Below, in pieces: positions 4,906 to 59,593 of a DNA stretch of 64,000 nucleotides. The translations under genes and the position numbers were made by a program. Each line of letters starts with the position of its first letter. The first letter of the stretch is position 1. Below the pieces are notes generated by a model. That model worked only from the letters and a program-made list of their open reading frames with translations, did not search any database and was not told the origin of the DNA. This DNA comes from Gammaproteobacteria bacterium. GTDB taxonomy: Bacteria > Pseudomonadota > Gammaproteobacteria > SZUA-229. Location of the stretch: assembly GCA_016744065.1 (NCBI GenBank), contig JADGFA010000020.1:4930-68929 (forward strand). Direction: 5' to 3'.

Positions 4906-4957
4906 GTTTTTCTAAAATGCAGCACACAGCTTATTGAGCATGTATTACGGAATAACA

Positions 4958-5235
4958 ATATTCTCTTCAGCCCTGAATATACGGTTATTCGGTGTCGTAA
5001 TAATCAGAGTAACTGAGTAGGTTCCACTCGCAGCATAGATGTGTTCAGGGTGAGCAATATTTTACATAATGGCTGAACCATCACCAAAGTCCCACTGTAA
5101 AATGCTTGCTGTTATCACCCGGCTATAATTATTAAAAGAAACCCGTGTGCCTGCTGGTGCGTTATTTGTTGCAATGTCAGCAAAAATTCTACGTCGATAT
5201 CGACCTGTTGCGCCTGGAACTTGATATTGTAATCC
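4958..5235 (-). pseudogene. Remnant of a PKD-domain protein gene (C-terminal fragment with an internal stop)
   Basis: Reverse-strand translation gives ...ATNNAPAGTRVSFNNYSRVITASILQWDFGDGSAIM*NIAHPEHIYAASGTYSVTLIITTPNNRIFRAEENIVIP*, a textbook PKD domain (WDFGDG...H.Y...G.Y.V.L) interrupted by TAA. No start codon or N-terminal part is present. Confidence 0.55.
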
Positions 5236-5480
5236 TCAAAATGAGTGATTTATCATGCCTTCCTGGCAAGTGTATTATCAATTTATAATATGATAGGGTG
5301 CTTCACACCTGATGTGGAAGTATATAAGAGGGAAGCGTTGATATTGTAATATCCCCTGGTTTGATGTCATGGCAGGCATAAATTTAACTATCAACATACC
5401 AAGAATTTGGTATTTATCCCATTTCAACTTCCTAATAGAATAGTTCCATAATAAATAAACTCAATATAGCTGCTATAGGT

Positions 5481-5984
5481 ATGTCTGGCCTGAAAAATAG
5501 AATGTTAAAAATGAAACTTACATCTTATCAAAACAGTATCCGTCTACTTGCTAGCCTTGCATTTCTTATGTTATCTGCCTGTGGCACACCGGGTGGCGTT
5601 ATTCACTCTGGAACACACACTCAAAAGCATATAAAAATTACCGGTGGAAGTACTTCCGGTCAGTTATCGATTGAAAGATTAGAGCTAACCGATCAAAGCG
5701 GTAGAAATAGCTTTAATGTAGTTAAGGGGAAAAAAATAACCCCTTTGGCAACAATTAAATTTTCTGGCCGAGGCGTATTAACTGGTCAATGGCTGGTTGA
5801 TGGAAAAATAATTGAACAGATAAATGTTAATTTAAGTCATGGTTCATTGCTAAATTTAAGGCTTAAACCGTCAACGCGAATACCTGCCTTTATACCGGGC
5901 TCCCATAAATTACAGTTGAAAATTAATCAGCCCGCAGTGAATTTTAAGTACCCTGTATTGAAATTCTTTGTAACAGCCAAATAA
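5481..5984 (+). CDS. Lipoprotein, paralogue of the N-terminal domain of the adjacent giant protein
   Basis: Lipobox LMLSAC. Residues ~55-167 align with giant-protein residues ~45-150: IERLELTDQSGRNSFNV / VERIELSFPNNRASQTVNL; GQWLVDGKIIEQ / VRWKVDGRVISQ; GSHKLQLKI / GSHVVTLEL; KYPVLKFFV / PTIKYFV. Confidence 0.6.
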   Translation: MSGLKNRMLKMKLTSYQNSIRLLASLAFLMLSACGTPGGVIHSGTHTQKHIKITGGSTSGQLSIERLELTDQSGRNSFNVVKGKKITPLATIKFSGRGVLTGQWLVDGKIIEQINVNLSHGSLLNLRLKPSTRIPAFIPGSHKLQLKINQPAVNFKYPVLKFFVTAK

Positions 5985-6128
5985 ACAAATTATGTACTTT
6001 TAGCGAAAGTTAAATATCTGGTGTATTTAATAGCCAGGATAGAGAGTGATCCAGAATCCGTCTGGCCTCGCTTAAAATGATATGAAATAAAATGTATTTT
6101 CAGGAAGATGAGAATAATTTAAAGAGGA

Positions 6129-9100
6129 ATGGTTTTGTTTGCAATAAATATAAGATTTATATTTTTATCTCTAGTTATAGGTCTTATACCTGCATATAGC
6201 TCCGCATCAATAGATATTAGCGTTGATGTAACCGGCACTGACAGGGGGGCATCTAGCGCCGCCAGCAAGGTTTTTGTAGAACGCATTGAACTTAGTTTCC
6301 CTAATAACCGCGCATCGCAAACGGTTAATTTAAACAGCAAAAAATTATATGCCAGAGCAAAATTTAAATACCTGGGTAATGGCCCATTAATTGTTCGCTG
6401 GAAGGTGGATGGTCGTGTTATTTCACAAAGCTCCGAAATTTTAACCTTTGGCAAAGAAGTTGAAATTCGTTCAGATAAAAATAAAACCTTTTTACCTACT
6501 TATCAACGTGGTTCCCATGTTGTTACTTTAGAGTTGCGTAATAGTAGTGGCTTAATTGATGTAACAGTACCCACTATCAAATACTTTGTAGCCGATGGTG
6601 TAGCGGGGCTGGAAACGGATACACCATTAAGGCTAATGTATCCTTCTGCAGCACAGGTCGATCCAGCCAAAGTTTATTTTCGTTGGCAGGGTCAGTCCTT
6701 ATTTAAAGCTTACTCTATTGAAGTGCAGCGCATAGCCAGCAAAACGGTCAGCGCAGCAACACTTATAAAGGCCATCAGTGATATTGATGTTTATTCCCCT
6801 ACAGATAAAACACGCTCAGAGTTTGTAGCCGCTGATTATCGTTGGCGGGTTAAGGGTATATATCAGGGTAAGAAATTAAAACCCTTAACATCTAAGTGGG
6901 CAAATTTTAGTGTGTCTAATGATGCATTATCTGGTGGCTTATTTATTCGACAGATTAGTGCAGAAACATCCATTTCTGATACAGGTTTATCTGCACAGTC
7001 TTTGCAGATAAAGCAGCAAATTATAAATAATTCACAGCGATTAATATCCCCTCAACATGTGGTTTCTCAGGGCAATATTACAGCGGGAAGTGGTTATCAA
7101 TTAAATATTGAGTTGCAGAACTCAGGCTTTATTGATGCGAATAATGCCGCAGTAGAAGTGCATGATCACTCAGGGTTAATAGGTCGATATCCAGTGACTG
7201 CAGCGGTTAATAATAATGTATCTGTTTTAATTTCGTTAGATGCAGATAGTAACAACCAGATCAGTTATGAAAATTTAAATATTATTTTATTAAATAATAA
7301 CCATGTTATAGATGAAGGTGCAATTAACTTAACCATCAGTCCTGAGTTACGTTTAGATGCACTAGATTTTGATGAAATAAATACTCAGCTAGGCGAAGTA
7401 GTTGCCATTGCTAACCCTTGTGGTAGTACATCTCCTGCGCATAATTTAGCTTTTAGTCGTATGGTTTCTGCACGATCACTACAATCTACACAATCTGTAT
7501 TAGACACGGGATCTTTTACCTTTGTAAAAAATCAGAATATAGAGTTCACAGCTTACTTAAAAGATAAAGGCCTGGGCAACTGGTTTGCATCATCACGCAA
7601 TAATTGCGGGATTTCACCCTTATCGCCTTTTGATCGTAGAGCATTAAACGATGAAATTGATGACTTACTGGCATTAGTTCAGCAATGTTATTCAGAGCAT
7701 ACAGGTAATAACCCTGATAAAAGCTGTAAGAACCAGATCAATGCATTAAGTGCAGCTCAGGAGCAACGTAATCAGGATGATATTTATAATGGTAATGCTT
7801 TTCATCTACAGTTTATTGCACATCCTTTAGACCAGTATGGCCAGCTATCAGGTGAGCCGATTGAAATCGGTCAGGTTACAGTTAATAAAAATAATGATGG
7901 TTTAGTAAAAAGTCCTTTCTGGAAAGTTCCTGAATCAGGTCAATATAAAATAACGTTAAATGACATTAGCGAACCGGTTGATTTGTTTGCAACCAATATC
8001 AATGGTCTGCCTAAATATATACATGCAGGTGGATTTGTTTTAGAGCTGGATCAAGTACATTCAAGCTCTGATATAACGAATATGAATCCGCGCCAGGCCA
8101 GTATTAATGGTGTGGCTTATACCCACTGGGCAGGTGATAGCTCACAACAAAGGTTATTACTGGATTTAGATAATGTATCCGTCACAATGCAGGCAAATCC
8201 GCTACATGGGGTTTTAAGTGGGGGTGAACTTAATTTAAAAGAAAACCAGTCAATTACATTGGCGTTAAAAGATGTATCCATGCAATTAAACCAGTTGCAA
8301 TTAAATATTAGCGGCGCAATAGCTGATCTGGCATATAAAATGCCGGGTTATAACCCCAGTATGTTTTCTAATATAACTTCATATTCGTTCACTAAAGGTG
8401 GAAAAGGTGAAGTAATACAAAATTCTATACCCAATAATGGCAACATTAAATTTCAGCAGTTGAAAATATTTAATGGCGGTGAATTTGTTGCACGTTATGA
8501 TTTTGACAATAGTTGGGCTGATACACGTTTAAATAATGATGATTTAGCACTTCGTTTAAAAGGTAGCACGCTAGTTATTGATGCCTCAAAGCATTTTAGT
8601 TTTACTGACTACACCAGTGAAGAAGAGTTTACTGGTATGGGATTTTATAATGCACTTGTACGGCTTAAAGTAAATAACTCAAATGGATTGTTTAGCTTAG
8701 TTGATGCAGAGCATGGGTTTATTTATGGCCGAGCTAACTGGTTAAATTATTCAGAAAACAATGTAAGTGGTGAAAATATTGAAGTGGTTTCAGCAGTGAA
8801 TGTTGCTGATTTTTTTAATCAGACAGTTGCTACTGAATTTGAGTTATTGCAGCCATTTGGCTTTAAGTTAAAAATAACAGGGGGTGTTTTTAGTCTTGAA
8901 GATTCACAGATTGGTGGACTAGACCTGTCCGGTTCAGTAAATTTACCTGGCAGTAATGATAGCGATGAGAATGCATTGTCCCATGTTATCTCTAATCATG
9001 AGTTTGTTTTTCAGCACTTGCATCGTCGAGCTTCAGCTACCGGTGTGAATTTGTTTAGTACTGAATTAGTCGATGATTCATCAATCAATTTCTCAGTTGG

Positions 9101-18100: not shown

Positions 18101-19982
18101 AAAAAATGGTGTGATGGGTAGCGGTGTGAATAGTTTTATTGTATTGGGAATGCAGGGCAATTCACTTACACCAGAGCAAGCATTAAGTGTGGTTAGCGGC
18201 GTTAGTGTTACTGCCAGTGAAATTGTTGAAAGTTTAACGAGTGCCAATGACCCAACTGCAGTATTTATGCGTATTTTAACGGGTAATGTAAAACAGGCAG
18301 ATATGTTGCCACCCGATCGTATGCTGGGAAGTGGACAGGCTTATGCTATTCCTAACGCCATTTTGGCAATATTGGGGCAAGTACGTAAAGTCGTTAAACC
18401 CTTACCTTCGCCTGACGCATATGCATCAGATAATACCTGGGGCTATTTAAAAACTGTGCCATTTATGAACTGGAATAACAGCTCAGCACAATTATCTGAT
18501 GCGGGCCATTATGCAGAAGATATGAATGAAATGATTGGTATGGCCAGTGGTTTTAATGCGGCAGGTGCTGCTAACCAGGGGACAGAAGTCGTACAGAAAG
18601 TCATGATAGCAGGAGCTGATATTGCACGTTTAGGCATTACAGGTATAGCTCCATTGATTGACCCCGATCCGAACAATCATCAGGCTGTGGCGGCAATTCA
18701 ACAACGTGCACTGTTTGACACATTGGCAGGTGATACACCGGGTTTCTCAGGTGTATCCGGCGGTTTACAACGTGAGTGGTTTATTGAAAACCCCAGTCAG
18801 CCAGGTGATTTAACCTTAGAAATGTATGGCCAACTCGTCTTCCCATTCTTTGGTCGTCATGTAGGCATGATGCAGTTAATCACGCAAGGTGATACGGCAG
18901 TATTAGATTTTCAATCAGCGAACGCAACAGAAGCCATAGGTGATTTTGTTGGTGGACTCACAGGAGGAGTGCATGCTCAGTTCTCAGTGGATGATCATGG
19001 CGCATTAGGCCTGGCATATCAGGGAAATACCAAACTGGAAATATTATCTAACACGATTGCTGAAGGTGCAGCTAGTGGGTTCATCCGTGATTTTAATGTG
19101 CCAGGCAGTGAGAATTTAACGCCTTTGCAATATGCTAAAAAACAGGCGGAAACAATTGATATTTTACAGTGTGCTTCATTAGAAACACAAATTGTTCCAT
19201 TTCCTCTTTCATTAACCGGTGTGGGTGCAACGGCAAATATAGGCGGCTTTATGGAAAAAACTGACCTGGGTGCGACGTTTGGTAGCCGAGTTGGTTTAAG
19301 TGGAAATTTAAATTTTCCAGTGATTACTTCTTTATTAGGTATTACATTGGATGGTGATATTACATCAGCCTATGGTGGCAGTTTAAACCCCGTTACCGGA
19401 CAGGTTGAGTTAAGCAATCAAACATGTGTTAACCCGGATATTAGTTTGACCGTATTTGGGCAGAGCTTTTCACTAACCGGTGTTAATGCTGAAGTGGCGA
19501 GCTTTATTGAAGGTGACTTAACTACGCTTAATCCTGCTGCCGGTATTAAAATGAAAGTAAGTTTAAATAGTGCTGTGGTAACCGCTATTAAAACAAACTT
19601 AGGCTGTTTTAATGAATCATTCGAACCCTTTAAATTGCTCGGTGATTTTGTATCTGATCCGACAGGTACATTAACTGAACAAGGCATTTGTACCGTACTG
19701 GATGCAGCTTCTACGGCGAGTATGTGGGTTGTTCTTAGAAATGAATTCCCGGCTAAAGCACAGATGATTCTCGGTTTTGGTGAGCTTCCCGCTAAGCAAC
19801 GTAACACAGTAGAGCCGTTCTTCATTGCTAATTACTCAATAGGTAATAATGGCAATATTACCCCGGGGTTAATTGAAATTAGTAAGCAGGCCGGTGACTG
19901 GGGCGGTTGGCCGGGATCGAAAAATATAAATATCTGTAATAAACAAATGTGTAACCTGAGTCAGTTTGAGGCTTTGCAGTAG
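6129..19982 (+). CDS. Giant secreted protein (4617 aa), function unknown
   Basis: Single uninterrupted 13.85 kb ORF. N-terminal Sec signal (FIFLSLVIGLIPAYSSASID). Beta-rich N-terminal ~1400 aa (Ig/CARDB-like composition). ~2000-aa L/Q/N/A/E-rich helical core. Internal Gly/Ala-rich hydrophobic segment (GLGAGADIVKATLAGV...VAVAVAVTGGTAGLGA). G/T/S-rich beta-like C-terminal ~900 aa. No RTX nonapeptides, cadherin, YD or obvious tandem repeats. AGGA sits directly before the ATG, so the true start may be the TTG two codons downstream. Confidence 0.9.
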   Translation: MVLFAINIRFIFLSLVIGLIPAYSSASIDISVDVTGTDRGASSAASKVFVERIELSFPNNRASQTVNLNSKKLYARAKFKYLGNGPLIVRWKVDGRVISQSSEILTFGKEVEIRSDKNKTFLPTYQRGSHVVTLELRNSSGLIDVTVPTIKYFVADGVAGLETDTPLRLMYPSAAQVDPAKVYFRWQGQSLFKAYSIEVQRIASKTVSAATLIKAISDIDVYSPTDKTRSEFVAADYRWRVKGIYQGKKLKPLTSKWANFSVSNDALSGGLFIRQISAETSISDTGLSAQSLQIKQQIINNSQRLISPQHVVSQGNITAGSGYQLNIELQNSGFIDANNAAVEVHDHSGLIGRYPVTAAVNNNVSVLISLDADSNNQISYENLNIILLNNNHVIDEGAINLTISPELRLDALDFDEINTQLGEVVAIANPCGSTSPAHNLAFSRMVSARSLQSTQSVLDTGSFTFVKNQNIEFTAYLKDKGLGNWFASSRNNCGISPLSPFDRRALNDEIDDLLALVQQCYSEHTGNNPDKSCKNQINALSAAQEQRNQDDIYNGNAFHLQFIAHPLDQYGQLSGEPIEIGQVTVNKNNDGLVKSPFWKVPESGQYKITLNDISEPVDLFATNINGLPKYIHAGGFVLELDQVHSSSDITNMNPRQASINGVAYTHWAGDSSQQRLLLDLDNVSVTMQANPLHGVLSGGELNLKENQSITLALKDVSMQLNQLQLNISGAIADLAYKMPGYNPSMFSNITSYSFTKGGKGEVIQNSIPNNGNIKFQQLKIFNGGEFVARYDFDNSWADTRLNNDDLALRLKGSTLVIDASKHFSFTDYTSEEEFTGMGFYNALVRLKVNNSNGLFSLVDAEHGFIYGRANWLNYSENNVSGENIEVVSAVNVADFFNQTVATEFELLQPFGFKLKITGGVFSLEDSQIGGLDLSGSVNLPGSNDSDENALSHVISNHEFVFQHLHRRASATGVNLFSTELVDDSSINFSVGVFDYQPENITFYIGEEDRPAYHSLNNPALDQLEQWEHEALTHWQESISNVLTERAGLLMSNGRFGKSWQVIASNEDTLDGFHRGAFLVNSQGFTGQWIDAGDTRHYQSNGFDSKVTASWIKFEGSSLVDSYVKGQLIVPYPVDQKFAFTGKLDQEAGFNIPENALQMPSENNWDLSYWKARLHVPEDETTEILTPTYNAITRSELPVVAPSHLYFDSDNQRIKIQGLGLSLLVSDESGGEEFTAIESDIPFNIDTYILPDGQLTETYITPNANIQFIGQAFEPDSHDAIQFLPYLGNHQAPADDVTATSQPLIQIQGNISFSVFGPRTVTIHHTASGAKVPEISRSPNIDEYYGEGDAIRVNAQLKFINTYARSAEGVASQVSQSTGETSENLQAFKAFVGTADLVMMNAVSIKGLAEAGIHQQSVLQRNDDNNGIFVPVAGGEQVAYERLGLGAGADIVKATLAGVRGLETATKLGGAAVSAVAGVDGTGQQVVDLGVDAVNFIESVAVAVAVTGGTAGLGAEEIRHAIDNGLATTDSAIKLLKIICDQQPGCLEDTSLQLDVASLFVRIAGGVSHFEQLTAEEIASISLQMMDTGIPLLRGIPVGQVADVPVNDIKDASLSAAHMVVGAARTLVDNNGRIAFADFLKISRRAVHMASDIRHINGLVQAGDEQKLLDLSISLANESIDMVDAFNNSGGINSVKLNGLTNQMIKLMCSQSENINPLFHKAGLAQANDQFIKPILSFSSQVLEKVETEGLPQNEQQAVSTFLINLLQSLSEGTGSIEGCETSQMQAMPAVQAMLKIAAHSLKPMKGALNNEGKQIAWALDGVSLSIDAVNEFSQQLNGNSFAEAQQIKTLLNNLSATFNNLQTDLSENQNNTDKGRTILRLAKGIPEAFQDLVSTGSPQAAELMDIYIALMRELEILISNAENISANELEGIDLFALPLALINETQDLSMLNQCQKYALSNLTNIISMSREVAKDSPSLSQIVSYSRSIHNNIKSCDQTGFSRNPELEKLMVLLELSASMLNNNQQTALLVKNSLPQLLPLFVDGSVRMLESVQAFIMALPIIDFTQDDLTPVLDDTLIKLLNEAESRSSSSTTKNAIRKARSIISHADFNIIGLTLTRDDTGNVTSMKQIRADGSERFYDFSLGWFKQIYPEGHPDYTGGVDELYSAGSLSYENLSAADKLDMFSENWNAEYANGDIHIRKYKDALGNYIIADNTNGADFVFITDAVSYGATTPERLIQVNGLPDVNTLASDINIESIWRASFYLPDNDSDCPFAGGCIVKFQNSLTYLTIHSVVNSSNLVVYTDSEENMVDSLDEIRPEGQLMLFNGRIISTQNNWNPLWQVNYRSDGVISIKKSDSIEVLNIGDANLIDSISEIINLVTSANNFVYRRVITGNDIWDYRPKDNRAIHSFGNGQWAVYHMDSVLADGIAVPAPEQILPMSELSLQFEGDANGLTENSNLPGVAENMLVDGDIQIPSENPGDVIVITLSGTGAGSVTVGGVPLDIVADNSAASSEPDGMGSRPLQDDGSYIVNGSNGNSSHYIGSNKDNMKIIRSTSASGIRTVDITFCSNPSLSLAMCAGGDESYSANYLVSSNYEIFYLPVRPVITPASGINQAIKHQLWLDVFELERQLKINPSEELLNRLAMLIDNAEDQGLPADELLAQHKHIAATAIKKLIMLQFEYYENNVSNLQTQQGWETNPDSSPAHKIKQLIERGESSGLAISIHANSFKQRFYEMQVLNYRSQLHQLMALNLSASDTSSIEKFKTHISALGDATITMSALGDNEILSTLSEYVCGKLEQVENDIIQPLVSDTNRVVFKSDIKFALDVMAYSDEYGCENVDFIAEVSSLTDRLLVGSESDSLSLQVSSVMLEKMILNQNPETGDYNHSGGLSSDDLIRFYMDKAWHGSNVENLNPPEANQYSLWAQQIQVLDRAIELIKSERIRRSNNGLTVYFYESSVEDLKTSMVNKLKLAWEAEWNRLFTQFRNNKTNKLDDLKGLAVHYELTAQLNAALKLTLSKDLIEVDSQQYLRSKENGSWNSPLNQMKDQQQAWIDEIWLTNNTVDVNKQNLHQQDDVIAFLKNTFPEDRLAGIKVSEKILMERLNQEMDNLEVAIARPDIDDILDDILKPVTDIDKLLSKLQIDSLRQRMDERVQTLLDQAVERVRTSSNDVLNLEIQKIIAIQTKHNGNINGIVNNQNIMSALANACDTAQQAMISQSTVDDLSHIQRFINVANMQESLGVESDQACSLSEAAEVMGHLLQEAFAELVRTQDINQVVPYLNLAEHAVALGNETDIGMAEIGVIIDRHRLQILSCVDTKNCTINNIKDYIKAAAQAQSLGVVDINLGADIDSMTSSSPDTMPGSIQRESDLPDLAQLVKSDASGSNGRSIASNILLSLGASLDLTNAQARKSINSIIARLKSLGSLTIPASFNKPVQINDPLFNAADDLQLKFDTWLEQATQQLADALNEDPGILVTDAVDGSASTIEGLGFTDEEIENILLPALNGNPGDDRIEPGNKYRLAATALEEINDLDGTAFLNLSYRILKNIPDPDITAEGDYRLAGIAQLTTFIFARSGEFVVSAGQVLSEDDIKDLPAANVLFTLLNLPAQQDPLQALATTIETQLISPLINGENASMSCAQGVGPCVLSSGLQIVAISLDSLIVTAQESDLENSDNGTANKQQKLIVYLNQLATKLSAVSNDGSAEAFWFSLGGEGLGISLMMFEQNIDLEKKLALRGLQLANKLFTHSQVDQFVSGLVQPVPMAFYFVRDSSVFLQQQLSENNDQNLPVAMARLVQGAVVDTMQSIDPALASFGNELMGWQLDFADANWELISAGTIEANEWMAALVSDKGVASLNCRVNASTNLSIPPALSLSPFVAAQSLINNRALLGRTENSPKLLADLSADLSNLWFAKIENSHCDNVSVPVITADNDQPTAKLLRQLGSIDMSKGADLAAVQVVGNFGIGAINMLLPETSLSNVMNLVWNGSTEKNGVMGSGVNSFIVLGMQGNSLTPEQALSVVSGVSVTASEIVESLTSANDPTAVFMRILTGNVKQADMLPPDRMLGSGQAYAIPNAILAILGQVRKVVKPLPSPDAYASDNTWGYLKTVPFMNWNNSSAQLSDAGHYAEDMNEMIGMASGFNAAGAANQGTEVVQKVMIAGADIARLGITGIAPLIDPDPNNHQAVAAIQQRALFDTLAGDTPGFSGVSGGLQREWFIENPSQPGDLTLEMYGQLVFPFFGRHVGMMQLITQGDTAVLDFQSANATEAIGDFVGGLTGGVHAQFSVDDHGALGLAYQGNTKLEILSNTIAEGAASGFIRDFNVPGSENLTPLQYAKKQAETIDILQCASLETQIVPFPLSLTGVGATANIGGFMEKTDLGATFGSRVGLSGNLNFPVITSLLGITLDGDITSAYGGSLNPVTGQVELSNQTCVNPDISLTVFGQSFSLTGVNAEVASFIEGDLTTLNPAAGIKMKVSLNSAVVTAIKTNLGCFNESFEPFKLLGDFVSDPTGTLTEQGICTVLDAASTASMWVVLRNEFPAKAQMILGFGELPAKQRNTVEPFFIANYSIGNNGNITPGLIEISKQAGDWGGWPGSKNINICNKQMCNLSQFEALQ

Positions 19983-19984
19983 CA

Positions 19985-21337
19985 ATGAAAAATATGAAAA
20001 AATTAAAGGCTTTAGTTATCCCTGAATATATTTGTCGAAAACTTAATGAGTGTGAATCGAAATCTGTAGAATACGCTAACAGTAGTCTGGTGCTAAATAT
20101 ATTTATACGAAAATTGATATTAGCATCTATTGTTTTTTTTCTACCCATCAATGCATTCGCAGATATCACGGGATTTCAGGTGAAATCCACAGAAAAATCA
20201 ATTTTTTTAAAATGGCATAAAACCGATAAAATAATCAGTTTGTATCGTAAGGCATATCAGTTACCCATAGCATGGGAAAAGCAGAAAAGTAAAAAAATAG
20301 ATAAAGGCGAAAAAATTGCAGAATTAAAATCAGGTGAATCAGAATATATAGACAATAATGTAAAAGAAAATACACGATATTATTATCGACTTCAATATGC
20401 CAACGATAAAAAAACGACTTTATCTTCTGCTCTGGTTTCATCCTTAAAAGACACAACGCCACCTGATGCAGTAAAAATAAATACCGCAAAAGCAGTTAAT
20501 TACAGTAAGCTGATATTAAACTGGAGCGCAAGCAAATCACCCGATGTGGTTGCATATCGAATTTATCGATCACAAAAAAACACATCACCAAAAATAATAA
20601 AAATAGTAAATTTTAATAACAAAAGCAGCAAACAAATAACCACAGAAATACTACAGAAAAAGAATGCTCAAATTGAATATAATTACTTTATTTCCGCAGT
20701 AGATGGCGCGGGAAATGTATCCCCATTATCAAGCTCAATTGCATTGCAGTTACCCGATACAATTGCACCTCAATCACCGTTGCAGTTAACCGCAACACAA
20801 ACAGAAAAGGGTCTGGAGTTACACTGGCTAGCTGATCTTGTAAATGATGTATCTGGTTATGCTGTGTATCGCAAAAGCAGTAATGACGAAACATTTAAAA
20901 AACTAAATAATGACTTGATTTATACACCTGTTTTTATCGATACAGAAATACAGGCTAATAAGAAATATCGTTACCGTGTCGTCGCAATCGATCAATTCGG
21001 AAATGAAAGCAAACCGACTAAAGGTTTGCTGGTTTTTATAAATAATAAATATTTTAGTGTTATTGCTCCAGATAGTTTTCTCATTACTACAACACAACAG
21101 GGAAGACCTGCCTTAAACTGGGCATTAAAAAATAATCAGTCAATTTCAGGTGTTATTGTACTGCGCAGTGAAGGTGATGGTTTTAAGGTGGTTTCTAAAC
21201 TGCTTAAAAATAATGCCTTTGTCGATGATTCCGTTAAGCTTAACCGCAGTTATAAATATAAGCTTAAAACCCTGGCGACCAATGGAGAACAATCGGTTGG
21301 TTCTAATGTGGTGCTGTGGAAAGGGGCAATGAAATGA
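19985..21337 (+). CDS. Secreted protein with ~4 fibronectin type III-like domains
   Basis: 3-nt gap after the giant gene. Internal signal-like segment LILASIVFFLPINAFA, so the true start may be downstream of 19985. FN3 hallmarks: ...LNWSAS..PDVVAYRIYRS..., ...LHWLADLVNDVSGYAVYRK...YRYRVVAIDQFGNES... Confidence 0.65.
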   Translation: MKNMKKLKALVIPEYICRKLNECESKSVEYANSSLVLNIFIRKLILASIVFFLPINAFADITGFQVKSTEKSIFLKWHKTDKIISLYRKAYQLPIAWEKQKSKKIDKGEKIAELKSGESEYIDNNVKENTRYYYRLQYANDKKTTLSSALVSSLKDTTPPDAVKINTAKAVNYSKLILNWSASKSPDVVAYRIYRSQKNTSPKIIKIVNFNNKSSKQITTEILQKKNAQIEYNYFISAVDGAGNVSPLSSSIALQLPDTIAPQSPLQLTATQTEKGLELHWLADLVNDVSGYAVYRKSSNDETFKKLNNDLIYTPVFIDTEIQANKKYRYRVVAIDQFGNESKPTKGLLVFINNKYFSVIAPDSFLITTTQQGRPALNWALKNNQSISGVIVLRSEGDGFKVVSKLLKNNAFVDDSVKLNRSYKYKLKTLATNGEQSVGSNVVLWKGAMK

Positions 21338-22398
21338 AATGGCTTGTTAACCCATCTTCTTCTAGATTCCTGTCTGTTTTATTAGCTATATTATCAAGTG
21401 TATCGCCATTAAAATCTGAAACACTGTTAACTCTGCCTGGGTTTACAGCAACAGCCAACATACAATTAGAGAATAACCCTGATGAAAGCCTGGTTTACGT
21501 TTCTGGCACCGTTAAAAAAATAAATACGCCGTCAGCAGAAAATATAATTGCCCCCAATATAACCGTGCGTTTCTGGCAGCCAGAAAATCCGGGCTCTTAT
21601 GTTACCGCAATAACAAATGAAAATGGTGTGTATACCATTGGTTTAACAGAAGGGGCCTGGCAGGGAGAGGCCTGTGGTTCTGATGCAGCTTACTATCCGT
21701 CAAGCTGGCAAGTGCTGGTGCAGGATAAAAAATTATTACAGTTACAGGCACATGATCAAAAAACAATTGAGCTGGATATGTTAACGCCAAGTAACCTTAT
21801 TAATCAACATAATACGGTAACCCTGACAGGGCGTGGATTTGGCTGTAATGGATCACTGGTTTTTACCTATTCCAATTCAGTTGATATTTGTAACAAGTCT
21901 TCAGATATCGAGTATGACCATGAAGTTATAACGTTAAATGATTTTTCATATCGCACTGATACGCAATTGCGTTTTGCTATGCCAGAGCTTTCAGACGTAC
22001 GCGATGTACACAAACACATTGCTTATGTTCGATACCAGCAGGGTAATTATAAAAGTCGATACATTGGTATTGGTGAAATGGTTTTGGCATCACAGTCCTC
22101 GAATGTGATTCTTTGTCAGGGTGGGCAAGTAGCTAACCAGTCTAATGTTGCCATATTAAACGGCACCCTGGGAATGCAGGGCATTGTCACTCAGATTGGA
22201 GGAACTGCTTTTAATAATGCTGGAGCAGGGGTTGTATCCGGTGTTGTTGGTGATACGCATCTGGGTGGCGGTAATAACCCGCAATTGACAGGCAGTGATT
22301 TTGCATCGGAAATGAGTTTTCAAAATTTAGAAATTGAGGGTGTGTCTGGCATCATGCAGTTTAATGGACAAGTGCCAAATATGGAGTTAAATCAATGA
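21334..22398 (+). CDS. Secreted protein, possible carboxypeptidase-regulatory-like (transthyretin-fold) N-terminal domain
   Basis: Overlaps the preceding stop, suggesting translational coupling. Signal peptide MKWLVNPSSSRFLSVLLAILSSVSP. VSGTVKKI...ITVRFWQPENPGSYVTAITNENGVYTIGL resembles a CarbopepD_reg/Cna-B-like beta-sandwich. Confidence 0.5.
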   Translation: MKWLVNPSSSRFLSVLLAILSSVSPLKSETLLTLPGFTATANIQLENNPDESLVYVSGTVKKINTPSAENIIAPNITVRFWQPENPGSYVTAITNENGVYTIGLTEGAWQGEACGSDAAYYPSSWQVLVQDKKLLQLQAHDQKTIELDMLTPSNLINQHNTVTLTGRGFGCNGSLVFTYSNSVDICNKSSDIEYDHEVITLNDFSYRTDTQLRFAMPELSDVRDVHKHIAYVRYQQGNYKSRYIGIGEMVLASQSSNVILCQGGQVANQSNVAILNGTLGMQGIVTQIGGTAFNNAGAGVVSGVVGDTHLGGGNNPQLTGSDFASEMSFQNLEIEGVSGIMQFNGQVPNMELNQ

Positions 22399-24581
22399 GA
22401 GTACTTTTGTTTTTAGGCTTATCGTATATGATGTTGCCTGTTGTATCTCATGCTGAGATAAAGCAATCAGTTATGCAGGGGCAGCGTGTTGAATTATATC
22501 AGGTTGATGATATTTCTATTCAGTTTGCTAATTTATTTTATCGATTAGAGGGAAGCCAGAAATTTATTCAACAGCCTTTATCAAGAAAGGGTAGTCAATG
22601 GTCTGCACAGCTTAAAGGGCATCAAGTACGTGTTCCTGGTATTGAGTATTATGTTCAACTGACATATAAAAATGGGTCGATAAAAACAGATCCGCCGGCT
22701 CATCCTGAATATAATCCAGAGCGTTTAAGTGTAAATACACTATCTACAGACACAATTCATATTACTAATATGAAAAACAATAAAAATGATAGCATTGAAT
22801 TTATAGTTAATGGTTATGTAGATACTGAAACACGCGTATTTATGGGTGATACTGATATTACAGATATGATGCGCCGTGATAATGATAAATGGACATTAGA
22901 AAATGTAAGTCAGCTATTTGATGGTCCGCAGTCAATTCAGCTAGTTAACACGCAGGGTAATACCATTGCCAAAAGTGCAATAAATATAAGTAATTCTGAT
23001 GAAACGCCCGCTGCTAAAAATGGAGAATTCGTTTTACGCGGTAGTGCCAGTTTTAATATTGGGGGGCAATCGGATGATGATTCAACTACAGATGAATCAT
23101 TAGTCGTTACAGGTAATTTACACATAGAAACAGAATATACTCACAATGATTTTTCTTCTCACTTTTCTGGCGTTGATGTTAATTATGATCATAGTGCCGA
23201 TAAAGAATTCGATTTATCGTCAGGATTTTTATTTACCAATAGTTATAAAAAAACATCACTGGAATTAGGTGATGTGAATGTTAAAGGTACGCCTTTAGTT
23301 CTGTCGGGGTTTTCTCGTCGTGGTTTTGTCGCAGCGACAGAAGGTGAAACATGGAAGGGATCTGTGTTTAATGTAAGAACCAGCACGGTGGATGGATTTG
23401 AATCGGGTATATCATTTGATGACAGGCAAACCTATGGTGCATCGTATGAACAGACAATAGGTGATTCAGGCAATACAAATATTCAGATATCAGCCGTAAG
23501 CGGTGACTTACAACAGCCAGAAACCAGTAATGTAGGGTCTGCAAACACAAATGCACAGGCTGGTGATACATTGGGTTTATTAGTTTCATCAGAGTATGCA
23601 GGTGTCAATATTAATGCGGAGCTAGCAAGTTCTAAATTTGATCTAGATACAAATGATGTCAATAATGCGGTGTCTGATGAGGCCTATGAAGTTCACTTCA
23701 CAAAAAACATTTATGGCTTGGCCTCGTCTTTAGGTTATCAACATTATGGTGCAAATTATGCCACCATTGCAAACCCGAATTTCTCCGGTGATAGAGAGGG
23801 GTTAAATTTATCCTTTGGCAGTAACTGGAAGGCCGTTAGCTGGACAGCTTCACTTTCAAGTATTGAGGATAATGTGGATAATGATCCACTGCGCCCAGTG
23901 GTTACATCTGATAATGCAGGCTTAAGCCTGGATTTTGTTATTGAAAACTGGCCAGCTATTAATATTGGTTTTAATCTAACGAACCAGTCATCTGATAATG
24001 AACCAGATGCAACTGCTGAAGTGGACAATAAAGGCCATGATGTATCATTAGGTTTATCGAATAGTTTTGATGCTTACAACCTGGCCTGGAGCAGTTCTAT
24101 TGGTGAATTAAATAACAAACTGGACGTAACTAATGACAGTGAAACCTCCAGTCATTCTTTAACCATGGGTTATAACTTTGATGCTGCCGATGTTAATTTA
24201 AACCTGTCACAGAATAAAAATGAAACAGATTTTATTCTGACTTCAAATTTAGCTAATCTTTCATTAAATATACCTCTTTTTTCTGACAATGTGGTTTTAA
24301 ATACGCAATTTTCAGCGCAACAGAATGAGGCGGATAATAATTCACAGAATAATGAAATTATTGGCGGCAGTGCCAGAGTTTCCTGGACTTTACACGATAT
24401 TATTATTTTTAAGTCGATGGACTGGGTTAACCCACAGTTTGGTATTAGCTGGACTATGAACAAAACATCAGATCAGATAGATAGCAGTCTGAATGAGTCT
24501 GACAGCACCATTATGTTTGACTTTAGTTTTGGTGCACCAATCAGCTTTGAACAACGTTGGCAGTTTGATGATGAAACTTAA
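22395..24581 (+). CDS. Putative outer-membrane beta-barrel protein (728 aa)
   Basis: 4-nt overlap with the upstream gene. Signal peptide MRVLLFLGLSYMMLPVVSHA. C-terminal ~450 aa made of short alternating hydrophobic/polar strands separated by D/N/S/G-rich loops (LSLDFVIENWPAINIGFNLTN..., SHSLTMGYNFDAADVNLNLSQ...). Ends ...RWQFDDET. Confidence 0.45.
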   Translation: MRVLLFLGLSYMMLPVVSHAEIKQSVMQGQRVELYQVDDISIQFANLFYRLEGSQKFIQQPLSRKGSQWSAQLKGHQVRVPGIEYYVQLTYKNGSIKTDPPAHPEYNPERLSVNTLSTDTIHITNMKNNKNDSIEFIVNGYVDTETRVFMGDTDITDMMRRDNDKWTLENVSQLFDGPQSIQLVNTQGNTIAKSAINISNSDETPAAKNGEFVLRGSASFNIGGQSDDDSTTDESLVVTGNLHIETEYTHNDFSSHFSGVDVNYDHSADKEFDLSSGFLFTNSYKKTSLELGDVNVKGTPLVLSGFSRRGFVAATEGETWKGSVFNVRTSTVDGFESGISFDDRQTYGASYEQTIGDSGNTNIQISAVSGDLQQPETSNVGSANTNAQAGDTLGLLVSSEYAGVNINAELASSKFDLDTNDVNNAVSDEAYEVHFTKNIYGLASSLGYQHYGANYATIANPNFSGDREGLNLSFGSNWKAVSWTASLSSIEDNVDNDPLRPVVTSDNAGLSLDFVIENWPAINIGFNLTNQSSDNEPDATAEVDNKGHDVSLGLSNSFDAYNLAWSSSIGELNNKLDVTNDSETSSHSLTMGYNFDAADVNLNLSQNKNETDFILTSNLANLSLNIPLFSDNVVLNTQFSAQQNEADNNSQNNEIIGGSARVSWTLHDIIIFKSMDWVNPQFGISWTMNKTSDQIDSSLNESDSTIMFDFSFGAPISFEQRWQFDDET

Positions 24582-24605: not shown

Positions 24606-27251
24606 ATGAGTTTAATAAATAAACTAACAATTATGTTTTTAATACTGATTATCAGTGCCTGTTCATCTGAGTCATCAGAAAATGACTCAAAAGAAGGCCT
24701 GGCAAGTATAAAAGTCAGTATACCTGGTCTGGAAAATAATAAATTTATCAATAAAACCAGTTTGGGTGAATCATCACAGGCAATAGATAATGCCAGTGTT
24801 CCGGCTGAAGTTGATTCAATTATAATAGATGTTCTTGATAACCGATCTAATGTTTTAGATGCTGCCGATATACTGGCCAATAATGGTGAAGTCACTTTAA
24901 ACATTGTAGCGGGCAAAAATTACACCGTCAGGGGCAGGGCTTTTGCAAATAATGAAGTTTTATTTTCAGGTACAAGTGAAATTGATTCAATTGTGACGGG
25001 TGATCGAATTTCAGTAAGTCTTTCATTACTCGATCAGATACAACTATCATTGACGGCTTTTGCTAATACACCTGTAGGCACCGCTGAAACTGACGTATCA
25101 TTTAACTTAAACGGTTTAAATGATATTTCAATAAACTGGTACATTAATGGCATTCTGGGAGGCAACGCTCAATTTGGCACTATTAATACAGCTGGTCAAT
25201 ATACAGCACCATCGATACTTCCACTTAACACAACAATAACGGTGACCGCTGAACCTGTTAATGCACCTTCATTTGCTCAGTCGTTTACTTTTCAGTTGTT
25301 ACCCGCTATTAATATTCCCCCGGTTGCTAATGCTGGAGCTGATGTAATGGTAAATGATGGAATCACAGTTAACCTTAATGGTAATGCAAGTACTGATATT
25401 GATGGCACTATTAGTACCTATAGCTGGCTAAGAATATCCGGTGATTTTAATCCCGTATTAAATGTTGTTAATTCCACGACAGTTAGTTTTACCTCTCCAG
25501 CCATGCAGTTCGGTGGAGCAGCAACCTTCAGGCTAACCGTAACAGATAATGAGGGTGCAACTGACACAGATGATGTAATCATTACAGTTAATGGCACGGA
25601 TCAACCTTTGCTTGCCAATGCGGGGCCCGATCAAACGGTAAATGAAGGTGATTCAGGCATTACACTAACAGCTAGTGCCAGTACCGATCTGGATAATACA
25701 ATTACAGGCTATCTATGGACACAGCTGTCAGGTACTTCTGCTTTATTATCCAGTACATCTGCTGTCTCACCAACTTTTGTAGCACCTGATGTGAGTATTG
25801 ATGAAAATTTAGTTTTTCAGTTAACGGTCACCAATGATGCTGGTTTGCAAGATACAGATACTGTTACTATCAGGGTTAATAACACAGTAGTGACTACCGA
25901 GAAAATTTATTTTTCTGCACTTTCAACAGGGTTTAATCAAAATATATGGGTAACTGATGGCACTGCTCCGGGCACATTTCAGTTAGCATCCGTGGCGGTT
26001 GAAAATAATGAATTTGCACGTTTTGAAACTCTCAATAATGATTTGTATTTTCAGGGAAATGATGGTGTTAACGGACGTAAATTGTGGCGCACCGATGGTA
26101 CATTAGTTGGTACTGAGTTAGTGGTATTAGATGATGGCTCTGTAACGAATGTAGACCCTAATAATTTTGCAGTACTGGGAGACTTATTATTGCTTGGGGC
26201 TAATACCTCTTTTAATGGTTCATTTAATATACCTGAATATATTTCACTTAATAGCACTAATGATGTAATAACGCCTTTATTTAATAGTCGGCCCACAGGT
26301 GGTTATGGTGTGCATAATAATGAGCTTGGAAAAATGGATGGCTTTATTTATTTTAACGATACGACCTTTACACCCTTAGTTAGCACCAACCTCTATCGTA
26401 CCGATGGCATTAATGCTGCTACGAGTATTGCAACTGGTTTTTTTGATACTCGTATGACAGAGTTTACCGAGTTCAATAATGAACTGTATTTTGTTGTTGG
26501 TCAAAAAGAGCTCTGGAAAACAGACGGTACAAATTTAGGTACTGTTTTATTAAAAACGTTTAGTGGTCATGTCGGCTATTCCTCATCATCGAGCTTAAGC
26601 GGGGTTTATAATGGCGGCATGATCGTATTTAATAATCAGTTATTTTTTGTTGCTGATGATGGGCAGGGAAGTGAGCTTTGGGTCAGTAATGGTGTAAGTG
26701 GCAATAGCCCGGATACTCTACTGATTAAGGACCTGGATAATAATACCAGCACATCTTCCTACCCTTATGAATTTAGAGTGGTTAATGGTAATTTGCTTTT
26801 CTTTAGTGCAGAAGGTGATGCCAGTACCGATGGGTTATGGATTACTGATGGCACATCGGTTGGTACTACACGGCTTCGGGCATTATCTGTAGGCAATACG
26901 GACAGCAGTTATTTTACTCAGGGTTACGATACAGCCGTACCAACTGTTGTAAATATTAGTAGTCAGGATTTATTATTTTTTGTCGCAAATGATGGCATAA
27001 CAGGTAATGAACTATGGGTAACAGATGGAACTGTGGGCGGTACTAATCTGGTAAGTGATATCAATAGTAGTAGTCACAGTTTTCCTGCTATATTTAAGGC
27101 AGGTAATAATAAATTGATATTTTCTGCACAAGATGATGATGGGCGTGCAAAACTATGGCAAACCGATGGTACCGCAATCGGTACCTCTTTAATACTTGAT
27201 ATATGCCCTGGCTGTTTTGGGCAAGGTGCATTTTTCAGGCCTGCAGGATAA
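24606..27251 (+). CDS. Lipoprotein with tandem PKD/Big-like domains and C-terminal ELWxxDGT repeats (881 aa)
   Basis: Lipobox LIISAC. Repeated PVANAGADVMVNDGITVNLNGNASTDIDGTISTYSW / LANAGPDQTVNEGDSGITLTASASTDLDNTITGYLW modules. Then >=7 repeats of the type ELWVTDGT, KLWRTDGT, ELWKTDGT, GLWITDGT, KLWQTDGT (the ELWxxDGT beta-propeller-like repeat). Confidence 0.7.
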   Translation: MSLINKLTIMFLILIISACSSESSENDSKEGLASIKVSIPGLENNKFINKTSLGESSQAIDNASVPAEVDSIIIDVLDNRSNVLDAADILANNGEVTLNIVAGKNYTVRGRAFANNEVLFSGTSEIDSIVTGDRISVSLSLLDQIQLSLTAFANTPVGTAETDVSFNLNGLNDISINWYINGILGGNAQFGTINTAGQYTAPSILPLNTTITVTAEPVNAPSFAQSFTFQLLPAINIPPVANAGADVMVNDGITVNLNGNASTDIDGTISTYSWLRISGDFNPVLNVVNSTTVSFTSPAMQFGGAATFRLTVTDNEGATDTDDVIITVNGTDQPLLANAGPDQTVNEGDSGITLTASASTDLDNTITGYLWTQLSGTSALLSSTSAVSPTFVAPDVSIDENLVFQLTVTNDAGLQDTDTVTIRVNNTVVTTEKIYFSALSTGFNQNIWVTDGTAPGTFQLASVAVENNEFARFETLNNDLYFQGNDGVNGRKLWRTDGTLVGTELVVLDDGSVTNVDPNNFAVLGDLLLLGANTSFNGSFNIPEYISLNSTNDVITPLFNSRPTGGYGVHNNELGKMDGFIYFNDTTFTPLVSTNLYRTDGINAATSIATGFFDTRMTEFTEFNNELYFVVGQKELWKTDGTNLGTVLLKTFSGHVGYSSSSSLSGVYNGGMIVFNNQLFFVADDGQGSELWVSNGVSGNSPDTLLIKDLDNNTSTSSYPYEFRVVNGNLLFFSAEGDASTDGLWITDGTSVGTTRLRALSVGNTDSSYFTQGYDTAVPTVVNISSQDLLFFVANDGITGNELWVTDGTVGGTNLVSDINSSSHSFPAIFKAGNNKLIFSAQDDDGRAKLWQTDGTAIGTSLILDICPGCFGQGAFFRPAG

Positions 27252-27253
27252 AT

Positions 27254-27895
27254 ATGACACCGTATTCACTGACGATAGTAGAAGATGAAACAATAGTAAG
27301 GGAGCGTCTGGTTAAATTAATTACCGAGCACTCTCAATTTAATTTATTGGGTGCAGCGGCTGATGTGGCAGGTGGTATTGCTGATTTAATAAAATACAGT
27401 CCAGATATTCTATTAACCGATTTAGGTTTACCCGACGGTTCGGGGATTGAAATTATTAAAGCAATTGAAATTAATCACCTTGATACTGAAGCTATGGTTA
27501 TTTCCGGATTTCAGGATGAGCATAATGTATTTAATGCACTGCAGGCGGGTGCCAGCGCTTATATTCATAAACACGATAAAAACCAGAAAATAACCGATGC
27601 TATTTTATCTATGATGCAGGGGGGGGCGCCTATAAGCCCGGTTATTGCGCGATTGATGCTACAGAAATTTCAAAAACCACAGCCTGTTAAACAATTACCA
27701 GAAGCATTAACTGAACGACAGATAAAAATATTAAAGCTGGTAAGTCAGGGGTTTTCATCAAAAGAAATAGCTGAAAAACTTAATATTAGTTATTACACAG
27801 TGACCACGCATATTAAGAATATTTACAATAAGTTGCAGGTTAATAGTCGGACTGAAGCCTTGCATGAGGCGGTTAAACTGGGTTTGCTGGAGTAG
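27254..27895 (+). CDS. Response regulator, NarL/FixJ (LuxR-type HTH) family
   Basis: REC domain (IVEDE...LLTDLGLPDGSG). C-terminal LuxR HTH (LTERQIKILKLVSQGFSSKEIAEKLNISYYTVTTHIKNIYNKL). ATG at 27254 chosen over the 27203 track start, which overlaps the upstream gene. Confidence 0.85.
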   Translation: MTPYSLTIVEDETIVRERLVKLITEHSQFNLLGAAADVAGGIADLIKYSPDILLTDLGLPDGSGIEIIKAIEINHLDTEAMVISGFQDEHNVFNALQAGASAYIHKHDKNQKITDAILSMMQGGAPISPVIARLMLQKFQKPQPVKQLPEALTERQIKILKLVSQGFSSKEIAEKLNISYYTVTTHIKNIYNKLQVNSRTEALHEAVKLGLLE

Positions 27896-34490: not shown

Positions 34491-34503
34491 TACGAGAGAG
34501 ACT

Positions 34504-36296: not shown

Positions 36297-36328
36297 TCAC
36301 TTGCTATGTTTCGTCAAAGCTTTAAATC

Positions 36329-37990: not shown

Positions 37991-38015
37991 CTTAATTTTA
38001 TAACGAGGAAGTTCA

Positions 38016-50258: not shown

Positions 50259-50318
50259 AAGAAGAGGGTGGGTATGAGATCTTACTTATACCTATCCCAT
50301 CGAATGGAAAATAGATAA

Positions 50319-52055: not shown

Positions 52056-52086
52056 GCTTATAGTTATTAATGTTGATGAGTAAATA

Positions 52087-54877: not shown

Positions 54878-54880
54878 GAG

Positions 54881-59577: not shown

Positions 59578-59593
59578 TATAAATTTTTTTTCA

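Follow-up and report, generated by a model that had tools for sequence, protein, structure and literature searches.

A lipoprotein paralog of the N-terminal domain of a giant secreted protein, with a predicted outer-membrane barrel as its most likely partner

Some large outer-membrane barrels hold a folded protein domain, as in LptD/LptE and MtrB/MtrA. The LPS translocon LptD-LptE consists of a 26-strand barrel with a lipoprotein plug, whereas MtrCAB combines the 26-strand MtrB barrel with the lipoprotein MtrC and the inserted MtrA; the plug domain of ushers provides, alongside LptE in LptD, a further precedent for the filling of such pores. When an outer-membrane barrel has an even number of strands, both of its termini face the periplasm. 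Type 11 secretion (Slam/DUF560) of surface lipoproteins relies on a DUF560 barrel with a TPR domain that is found beside its lipoprotein cargo (PMC8406197).

Few parts of bacterial genomes are as poorly understood as giant proteins without recognizable domains. Here, we analyzed a 64,000-nucleotide stretch of gammaproteobacterial DNA (the window) in which a small lipoprotein gene (LP) precedes the gene for one such protein (the giant; Table 1), and compared this locus with its relatives. LP is a free-standing ancient paralog of the first domain of the giant, and the LP-giant pair is a conserved feature of a widespread gene cluster, not a local oddity. We found no description of this gene cluster in the literature. 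The comparison turns an anonymous 4617-residue ORF into a checkable three-part hypothesis that comprises a barrel, a lipoprotein, and a cargo N terminus.

Table 1. Features of the cluster, with positions in the window and the basis of each assignment
Feature	Position	Strand	Length or residues	Basis and remarks
Lipoprotein (LP) gene	5481..5984	+	167 aa	ORF; signal peptide with lipobox
LP lipobox cysteine	5580-5582		Cys34	End of signal peptide; followed by a linker of ~15 residues
LP domain D1	5628-5975		residues ~50-165	
Giant secreted protein	6129..19982	+	4617 aa	ORF; signal peptide, residues 1-26
Giant D1 copy	6219..6608	+	residues ~31-160	Paralog of the LP domain
Giant D2	6618-6908	+	residues ~164-260	
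Secreted multi-fn3 protein	19985..21337	+	450 aa	Pfam fn3, E = 5.7e-12; conserved core partner directly 3' of the giant
Secreted 360-aa protein	21316..22398	+	360 aa	Conserved core partner
p728, predicted outer-membrane barrel	22395..24581	+		Signal peptide, beta domains, barrel model
Second lipoprotein	24606..27251	+	881 aa	Lipobox ISAC, PKD domains, 7 ELWxxDGT repeats
LuxR/GerE-type response regulator	27203..27895	+		Cluster associated
Sensor histidine kinase	28888..30753	+	621 aa	Homologs annotated 7TMR-DISM_7TM; pairs with the regulator at 27203..27895

The shared domain of LP and the giant

A sequence-only reading of the window had proposed that the small ORF encodes a lipoprotein, and that this protein shares a beta-rich domain of ~110 aa with the N terminus of the giant. 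Both proposals were upheld. The LP signal peptide ends in FLMLSAC, and its lipobox L-S-A-C conforms to the pattern [LVI][ASTVI][GAS]-C of the Lgt/LspA substrate class; on a near-identical contig, the gene caller picks Met8 as the start, giving a protein of 160 aa. The lipobox was present in 27 small LP homologs, and the residue at +2 was G, A, S, or V, with D in none of them. Under the E. coli Lol sorting rule, a residue other than Asp at +2 leads to outer-membrane sorting, so that all 27 homologs would be sorted to this membrane. LP is thus probably lipidated and sorted to the outer membrane, but the +2 rule is enterobacterial and may not be transferable.

BLASTP of LP against the first 300 aa of the giant paired LP residues 42-164 with giant residues 23-154 (29% identity, 52% positives, 132 columns, E = 6e-14). 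The Smith-Waterman score of LP against the N-terminal region of the giant was 140, compared to 28.4 ± 4.9 (maximum 56) for 2000 shuffled sequences (z = 23), which lies well above the controls by which the sequence-only reading had proposed to judge the homology; against the whole giant, z was 19.5. The domain, termed D1 herein, spans ~115 aa and contains, in both proteins, all four of the motif blocks noticed at the outset (ERxEL, WxVDGxxIxQ, GSH, and K[FY]FV). A two-sequence HMM identified a single D1 copy in the giant and no further copy within this protein or anywhere else when all six reading frames of the window were translated. The earlier statement that the domain has no assignable name also proved correct, as neither LP nor the giant had a match in Pfam (E ≤ 10) or NCBIfam, and the D1 profile had no sequence match in the PDB. 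The label of "tip domain" was not supported because the N terminus of the giant could equally be its base.

Beyond D2, the giant consists of ~4350 nonrepetitive residues without a known domain. No convincing transmembrane segment was identified beyond the signal peptide, and its 30 Cys residues are arranged as 15 sequential close pairs. PDB sequence searches with the giant, or with a profile of six full-length giants, gave nothing useful, and a word-indexed homology search with its first 800 aa returned nothing. Giants with a D1 N terminus span 4537-4854 aa and are collinear and conserved along their full length, and they lack a variable C-terminal cassette.

D1 defines a family of ~115-aa predicted beta-sandwich domains with the motifs R-x-E-L-x-F, G-x-G-x-L-x-x-x-W-x-V-D-G, L-P-T-F-x-P-G-x-H, and Y-F-V, which are matched by both copies in the window. 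Word-indexed searches with LP or with a 23-sequence D1 alignment returned only 1 and 5 close matches, respectively, and it was an exhaustive profile search that revealed the family, which reached 474 clusters at E ≤ 1e-3, 188 of which also passed E ≤ 1e-10. Current domain databases miss this family, which numbers more than 470 clusters. It comprises three clades, namely small lipoproteins, the N termini of giants, and the C-terminal ends of secreted Ig-array proteins, all of which retain the charged and aromatic motifs R-x-E-L, W-x-V-D-G, and P-G-x-H. D1 occurs together with D2 at the C terminus of many secreted PKD/He_PIG arrays and with subtilases, and hence may be a general binding module and not a dedicated docking domain. 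BiPBP_C was detected below its gathering threshold in 5 of 23 D1 family members (best E = 0.0026); LP and the giant matched neither it nor other named Ig-like Pfam families at E ≤ 10.

The LP domains form one clade apart from the D1 of giants. An LP had an identity of 0.316 to its own giant versus 0.31 to other giants, and LP-LP and giant-giant identities were correlated (r = 0.81). Because this one LP clade co-diverged with the giants, the duplication was single and ancient. Recent duplication and LP-giant gene conversion were both considered and rejected, since an LP resembles its own giant no more closely than it resembles other giants.

Gene order and the cluster barrel

A search for related loci with closer sequences identified 3 genome loci and 2 metagenome loci. 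In all 9 LP lineages that were informative (window/L001, L005, L006/L013, L007, L008, L009, L014, L016/L017, and L018), the LP gene immediately precedes that of a D1-bearing giant, at distances that range from overlapping to 144 bp; in the window, no predicted terminator separates the two genes. Distant loci have the gene order barrel-LP-giant. LP was not seen in the available sequence of four giant lineages (L010, L011/L012, L004, and L003, the last with only 1.7 kb upstream), which implies that it is either dispensable or encoded elsewhere in some lineages. Barrels at LP-less loci are of the same length and have no extra plug domain. Direct lipidation of the giants at these loci was considered and rejected; a Cys is present in the hydrophobic core, but AxA-type SPase I sites precede a conserved A-I-D-[IV] strand.

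The core of the cluster consists of the giant, the fn3 protein, a ~350-aa protein, and a ~720-aa protein. Homologs of the fn3 protein follow the giant in L009, L010, L011, and L012, and in L016 a ~222-aa gene sits between the two. The L009 homolog of the 360-aa protein had weak CarboxypepD_reg and TIG matches. The second lipoprotein is an accessory component that is conserved in several loci, and homologs of the response regulator (71-73% identical) adjoin the giant in L007, L011, and L012. No Rfam matches were found in the window.

The ~720-aa core protein of the window, p728, carries a signal peptide and is predicted to consist of two small N-terminal beta domains (residues ~30-200) followed by a ~26-strand outer-membrane beta-barrel (residues ~211-723). 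AF2 models of D1 and p728 were of moderate confidence (pLDDT 68-69; D1, 69) and based on shallow alignments; for p728, an alignment of 4 sequences gave 26-27 long antiparallel strands with a pLDDT of 80-94 in the barrel. The modeled barrel is closed, and p728 homologs end in F, W, or Y, the C-terminal aromatic beta-signal of outer-membrane barrels. Its top fold matches were FimD, PapC, MtrB, AlgE, and LptD. The likeness to FimD and PapC is at the level of the barrel (TM 0.24-0.46), and MtrB had the best target-normalized TM-score among full-length chains (0.44), with a FimD translocation-domain fragment (3ohn_A) reaching 0.46. Searches of Pfam and NCBIfam assigned p728 to no usher, LptD, or other family.

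LP-type D1 is fused to a p728-like barrel in three protein clusters. P0027 (848 aa) and P0084 (840 aa) combine a signal peptide, an LP-type D1, and a full-length p728 homolog, and P0140 (812 aa) is a p728 homolog with a C-terminal D1. The P0084 and P0140 fusions come from protein sequences. The P0027 fusion was seen on contigs of three samples, with the giant beginning 28 bp later, and the 4.7-kb contig (L020) that covers the start of the giant behind it carries no separate LP; here, the fusion replaces the separate LP gene before the giant. Because the termini of an even-stranded barrel face the periplasm, the fused D1 would lie on the periplasmic side. Given that LP-type D1 is naturally fused to this barrel, the most likely partner of LP is p728, on the periplasmic side of the outer membrane.

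A docking model and its alternatives

We propose, with about even confidence, that LP is an accessory, periplasm-facing subunit of a p728 barrel complex at which the homologous N-terminal domain of the giant docks. LP would be exported by Sec, lipidated, and then sorted to the outer membrane, where its lone D1 beta-sandwich would be positioned at the periplasmic face of the barrel or inside it. The giant would also be exported by Sec, and its mature N terminus, the ancient paralog of LP's D1, may dock onto this complex, with LP's D1 as its pairing partner or at an equivalent site on the barrel, an interaction that the shared D1 fold would enable. Docking could then anchor the 0.5-MDa giant at the outer membrane or initiate its transit through the barrel. 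Among the roles first suggested for LP (chaperone, decoy, immunity, or docking), only docking gained support, in a more specific form that derives from the fusion of LP-type D1 to the cluster barrel.

The same fusions and barrel model also accommodate a plug or gate that works by cargo mimicry, in which LP's D1 fills the lumen or periplasmic mouth of p728 in the absence of cargo until the D1 of the giant displaces it and takes the same site, so that the two compete and do not pair. A ~26-strand barrel is wide enough for a ~115-aa domain, and the core motifs, which are identical in LP and the giant, are compatible with one shared binding site. However, the barrels of LP-less loci lack an extra plug domain, the placement of D1 in the lumen is conjecture, and the same data fit pairing; we regard competition as credible but unlikely. 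A different and rather doubtful explanation is that D1 is a CBM- or Ig-type beta-sandwich with which LP and the giant recognize a common ligand (LPS, capsule, peptidoglycan, or an external polymer) but make no contact with each other, their adjacency reflecting only shared function and regulation. This would suit the recurrence of the D1-D2 module in secreted arrays and beside subtilases, the subthreshold BiPBP_C matches, the motifs kept across three clades, and the top Foldseek hits to the D1 model, which were the Wzt carbohydrate-binding domain, CARDB, and GH3 fn3-like domains (E ~1e-4), although these matches are generic, with a TM of ~0.5 and a model pLDDT of 69. Ligand binding leaves unexplained both the repeated fusion of LP-clade D1 to the barrel, with replacement of LP there, and the immediate adjacency in 9 of 9 lineages over deep divergence.

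An Ig-like LP might instead act as a periplasmic chaperone of the chaperone-usher type that first stabilizes the N-terminal domain of the giant, e.g., through strand complementation, and then hands it over to a barrel of usher-like type. We consider this quite improbable because PapD (PF00345/PF02753) and usher (PF00577) families were unmatched even at E ≤ 10, known chaperones of this type are soluble two-domain proteins and not lipoproteins, neither D1 copy appears to lack a part when the two are aligned, and a domain covalently fused to a barrel could not shuttle. Least probable is that LP is an immunity protein or decoy that protects the producer against a toxic giant, a reading that draws on the general precedent that small lipoproteins beside large secreted toxins can be immunity factors. 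PADLOC gave nothing useful on the cluster proteins, and toxin, polymorphic-toxin, and defense families were not found among them. Polymorphic toxin systems are expected to have a downstream immunity gene and a variable C-terminal toxin domain, whereas the small gene here is upstream and resembles the N-terminal module of a giant that is collinear end to end, not an effector; moreover, LP is missing at several giant loci and is barrel fused in some genomes.

Extending the docking model to the whole cluster, we tentatively suggest, as a possibility short of probable, an undescribed Sec-dependent system for the outer-membrane export or anchoring of ~0.5-MDa nonrepetitive proteins, in which a lipoprotein mimic of the cargo N terminus would prime or gate a dedicated ~26-strand barrel and the D1-D2 module has been reused at the C termini of Ig-array proteins and proteases. 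If this were the case, these D1-D2 Ig-array proteins and proteases would be further clients of such barrels.

Relation to known secretion systems

The proposed arrangement would resemble the LapA-type retention module, in which a giant surface protein is retained at the outer membrane because its small, folded N-terminal domain remains periplasmic to the channel. LapA-type T1SS adhesins, however, use ABC/MFP/TolC, have no Sec signal peptide, and are highly repetitive. The giant shares none of these features and also departs from RTX/Bap-like adhesins, as it has a Sec signal peptide and no internal self-similarity by BLAST, and its cluster contains no T1SS genes. With regard to type 11 secretion, p728 had no DUF560 match at E ≤ 10. 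Chaperone-usher systems (FimD/PapC) differ by their usher and PapD families and by pilin-like polymerizing subunits, all without a counterpart here, where the putative substrate is a single 4617-aa nonrepetitive protein and the Ig-like partner is lipid anchored and, in some genomes, joined to the barrel.

Two-partner secretion (TpsA/TpsB, FHA/FhaC) likewise involves a very large Sec-dependent exoprotein and a dedicated adjacent outer-membrane barrel, which recognizes the N-terminal domain of the exoprotein. No TPS (Haemagg_act) domain, POTRA domain, or Omp85-type 16-strand barrel is present here (p728 has ~26 predicted strands), the N-terminal domain is modeled as a beta-sandwich and not a beta-helix, and no lipoprotein mimic of the targeting domain is known from two-partner systems. 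The large barrel of MtrCAB also sheathes or docks folded partner proteins, which include a lipoprotein, but there are no cytochromes or sequence similarity to MtrCAB in this cluster, and MtrC is surface exposed and unrelated to the inserted partner.

LptD-LptE differs in that no LptD (OstA) or LptE family matches were found here in Pfam or NCBIfam, the proposed cargo is a protein and not LPS, LP is optional in some lineages, and the paralogy of LP to the cargo N terminus has no counterpart in LptE. The two systems are alike in having a very large outer-membrane barrel with one or more N-terminal periplasmic beta domains and a small (~150-190 aa) outer-membrane lipoprotein, and LptD was among many structural barrel matches of p728. 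If the docking model holds, the barrel and its cargo-mimicking lipoprotein would form a new machine by which large proteins are placed at or beyond the Gram-negative outer membrane.

The paralogous pair and its shared domain

The sequence-only reading had placed a common domain in LP, a small lipoprotein, and the N-terminus of a giant secreted protein encoded downstream. BLASTP bore this out (E=6e-14): residues 42-164 of LP pair with residues 23-154 of the giant, with 29% identical and 52% positive positions. The local alignment score of 140 lay far above 2000 shuffled controls (28.4 ± 4.9; z=23), LP against the whole giant gave z=19.5, and every motif block named earlier was recovered. This ~115-aa domain, D1, occurs once in the giant, with no further copy in the window beyond the pair. 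Pfam and NCBIfam gave no match to either protein at thresholds as loose as E≤10, in agreement with the earlier judgement that no name could be assigned. LP starts with a basic n-region and hydrophobic core followed by the lipobox L-S-A-C (Cys34, 5580-5582), and the giant with a classical signal peptide ending between YSSA and SIDISVDV.

We found no repeats, internal TM segments or PDB sequence relatives of the giant. Its 30 cysteines fall into 15 sequential close pairs (e.g., 1539/1545, 2273/2279, 3316/3322, 4603/4608). Most pairs are invariant across the six giants compared; this suggests conserved disulfide bonds and fits an oxidising extracytoplasmic location. No terminator-like site separates the two genes in the window, and the gap 5' of LP, presumably the site of the cluster's regulated promoter, showed no promoter or terminator signal above background. 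Elsewhere in the window, the VPLPA-CTERM signal of a secreted protein scores 31.8 bits with TIGR03370 (cutoff 25.35), which implies that the organism has an exosortase system.

Window features and homologous loci with an LP-giant pair
Feature	Locus	Position	Strand	Details
Secreted protein	Window	108-767	-	219 aa; C-terminal VPLPA-CTERM (PEP-CTERM-type) sorting signal
Non-coding gap	Window	4906-5480		575 bp, 5' of LP gene
LP ORF	Window	5481-5984	+	167 aa
Giant ORF	Window	6129-19982	+	4617 aa
p728	Window	22395-24581	+	Predicted ~26-strand outer-membrane barrel
Second cluster lipoprotein	Window	24606-27251	+	881 aa; lipobox ISAC, PKD domains, seven ELWxxDGT repeats
Conserved-looking cluster	Window	33912-41006	+	192-aa protein, TelA, DUF4178, 553-aa protein, DUF350, spermidine-synthase-domain protein, S-adenosylmethionine decarboxylase
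Regulatory genes and neighbour	Window	48408-52728	+	616-aa protein (weak SslE/AcfD-like N-terminal match), hybrid histidine kinase, second LuxR-type response regulator
Mrp/Mnh-type cation/proton antiporter subunits	Window	52858-59694	-	Run of genes (Proton_antipo_M x3, MnhB/MbhD/MbhE)
LP-giant pair	Window, L001			Near-identical
LP-giant pair	L005, L006/L013			LP ~56-63%, giant ~58% identity to window's
LP-giant pair	L007			LP 46%, giant 42% identity to window's
LP-giant pair	L008			
LP-giant pair	L009			NCBI GCA_054014815.1
LP-giant pair	L014			
LP-giant pair	L016/L017			NCBI GCA_002450975.1; large protein 2655 aa
LP-giant pair	L018			
Shorter giant relative (~2655 aa)	L016	10453-18420		Same cluster type
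Shorter giant relative (~2655 aa)	L017	6075-11621		Same cluster type

Distribution of D1 and age of the duplication

Exhaustive searching of 1.84 billion representative proteins with a profile built from the two window copies retrieved 474 clusters at E≤1e-3, 188 of them at E≤1e-10; the profile had no match among PDB sequences. An AF2 model of D1 (pLDDT 69) is an all-beta sandwich, with Foldseek matches at E~1e-4 to the Wzt carbohydrate-binding domain, CARDB, the GH3 fn3-like domain and RhoGDI, all of them generic Ig-like or CBM-like sandwiches. A Pfam scan gave sub-threshold matches to BiPBP_C only, in 5 of 23 diverse members. D1 is a real and widespread domain that carries no name.

Three architectures were found: giants of 4537-4854 aa and shorter relatives (~2620-2830 aa), which start with a signal peptide and have D1 at the extreme N-terminus; lipoproteins of ~147-182 aa, nearly all with a lipobox Cys; and secreted PKD/He_PIG Ig-domain arrays, some with subtilase, where D1 lies internally or close to the C-terminal end. 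Ten full-length giants aligned end to end at 20-44% identity, with D1 among the best conserved regions. Giant residues ~160-260 (D2) are homologous to a ~105-aa tail located after D1 in the array proteins (E down to 2e-16), so that the N-terminal D1-D2 of the giants is the module that ends those arrays; LP has D1 only. P0040, P0046, P0053, P0059, P0069, P0081 and ~70 further clusters have D1-D2 at or near the C-terminus; these secreted proteins are PKD/He_PIG arrays, and a subtilase S8 domain is present in some.

In a neighbour-joining tree built from 151 D1 sequences the three groups are separate, with the lipoproteins as one coherent clade. Across ten paired loci, LP is no closer to the D1 of its own giant (0.316 identity) than to that of other giants (0.31), and LP-LP and giant-giant identities are correlated (r=0.81). 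By these comparisons LP had a single, ancient origin and co-diverged with the giants, and is not the product of a recent local duplication.

The LP gene lies directly 5' of a D1-bearing giant in all nine lineages with readable context (the L015 contig, too short to judge adjacency, is outside this count), with spacing from overlap up to 144 bp. No LP was found in the available sequence of giant loci L010, L011/L012, L004 (10 kb upstream) or L003 (only 1.7 kb upstream). The conserved core consists of the giant, p728 (~720 aa) and two further proteins, one with fn3 domains and one of ~350 aa. LP is a variable member, as are a PKD/ELWxxDGT or cadherin/FG-GAP protein and the pair of a LuxR-type response regulator and a 7TMR-DISM-type histidine kinase. 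In the LP-less L004, L011 and L012, homologues of the 881-aa lipoprotein (46-47% identity) lie upstream of the giant in divergent orientation. More distant loci have the order p728 homologue, LP, giant; L016/L017 encode the barrel, LP, the large protein, a 222-aa protein and the fn3 protein, beside a BTAD/AAA_16 regulator in place of the two-component system.

Barrel fusions and the proposed role of LP

Three non-small proteins fall inside the LP clade. P0027 (848 aa) and P0084 (840 aa) join a signal peptide and LP-type D1 to a full-length p728 homologue (P0027 against p728: 32% identity over 760 columns), and in P0140 (812 aa) D1 follows a p728 homologue, at the C-terminus. Contigs from three different samples carry the P0027 gene; on the one that reaches far enough, L020 (4.7 kb), a giant N-terminus starts 28 bp after it, and no separate LP gene is present. 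In the P0027 lineage the fusion is, judged from sequence, a replacement for the LP and barrel pair, with the barrel rather than lipid as predicted tether. Both termini of an even-stranded barrel are periplasmic, so D1 fused at either end would also face the periplasm. At the +2 position, next to the lipidated Cys, 27/27 LPs have G, A, S or V and never Asp, which by the E. coli Lol rule indicates probable sorting to the outer membrane.

LP is thus best read, on computational grounds, as a subunit, facing the periplasm, of a complex of barrel and lipoprotein that serves the giant specifically. LP would be bound to a p728-type barrel, and the giant's N-terminal D1, of the same fold, would dock on LP's D1 or an equivalent barrel site, whereby the giant would be tethered to the outer membrane or its passage begun. 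A close variant makes LP a plug of the barrel, from which the D1 of the cargo would displace it. Docking is accordingly the best supported of the four roles offered by the sequence-only reading. Its chaperone proposal, in PapD-like form, conflicts with the lipid anchor of LP and the covalent D1-barrel fusion, and an immunity or decoy role finds no support, given collinear giants and no toxin or defence matches. A third reading, D1 as an independent ligand-binding module, draws on its presence in array proteins and its CBM-like fold matches but leaves both the barrel fusions and the strict LP-giant adjacency unexplained.

Comparison with known systems

All tests of sequence-level membership in known systems, among them LptDE, two-partner secretion and chaperone-usher, failed, and p728 resembles known barrels at the level of a large outer-membrane barrel only. 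We found no published description of this cluster in the literature, and to our knowledge no system has an accessory lipoprotein paralogous to the targeting domain of its cargo. That the cluster represents a novel kind of system for outer-membrane export or anchoring is a tentative, rather doubtful suggestion from computation. The likenesses are functional: to LptDE and MtrCAB as a barrel-plus-lipoprotein machine, and to two-partner secretion and chaperone-usher systems, where a dedicated barrel recognises a large Sec-dependent cargo by its N-terminal domain.
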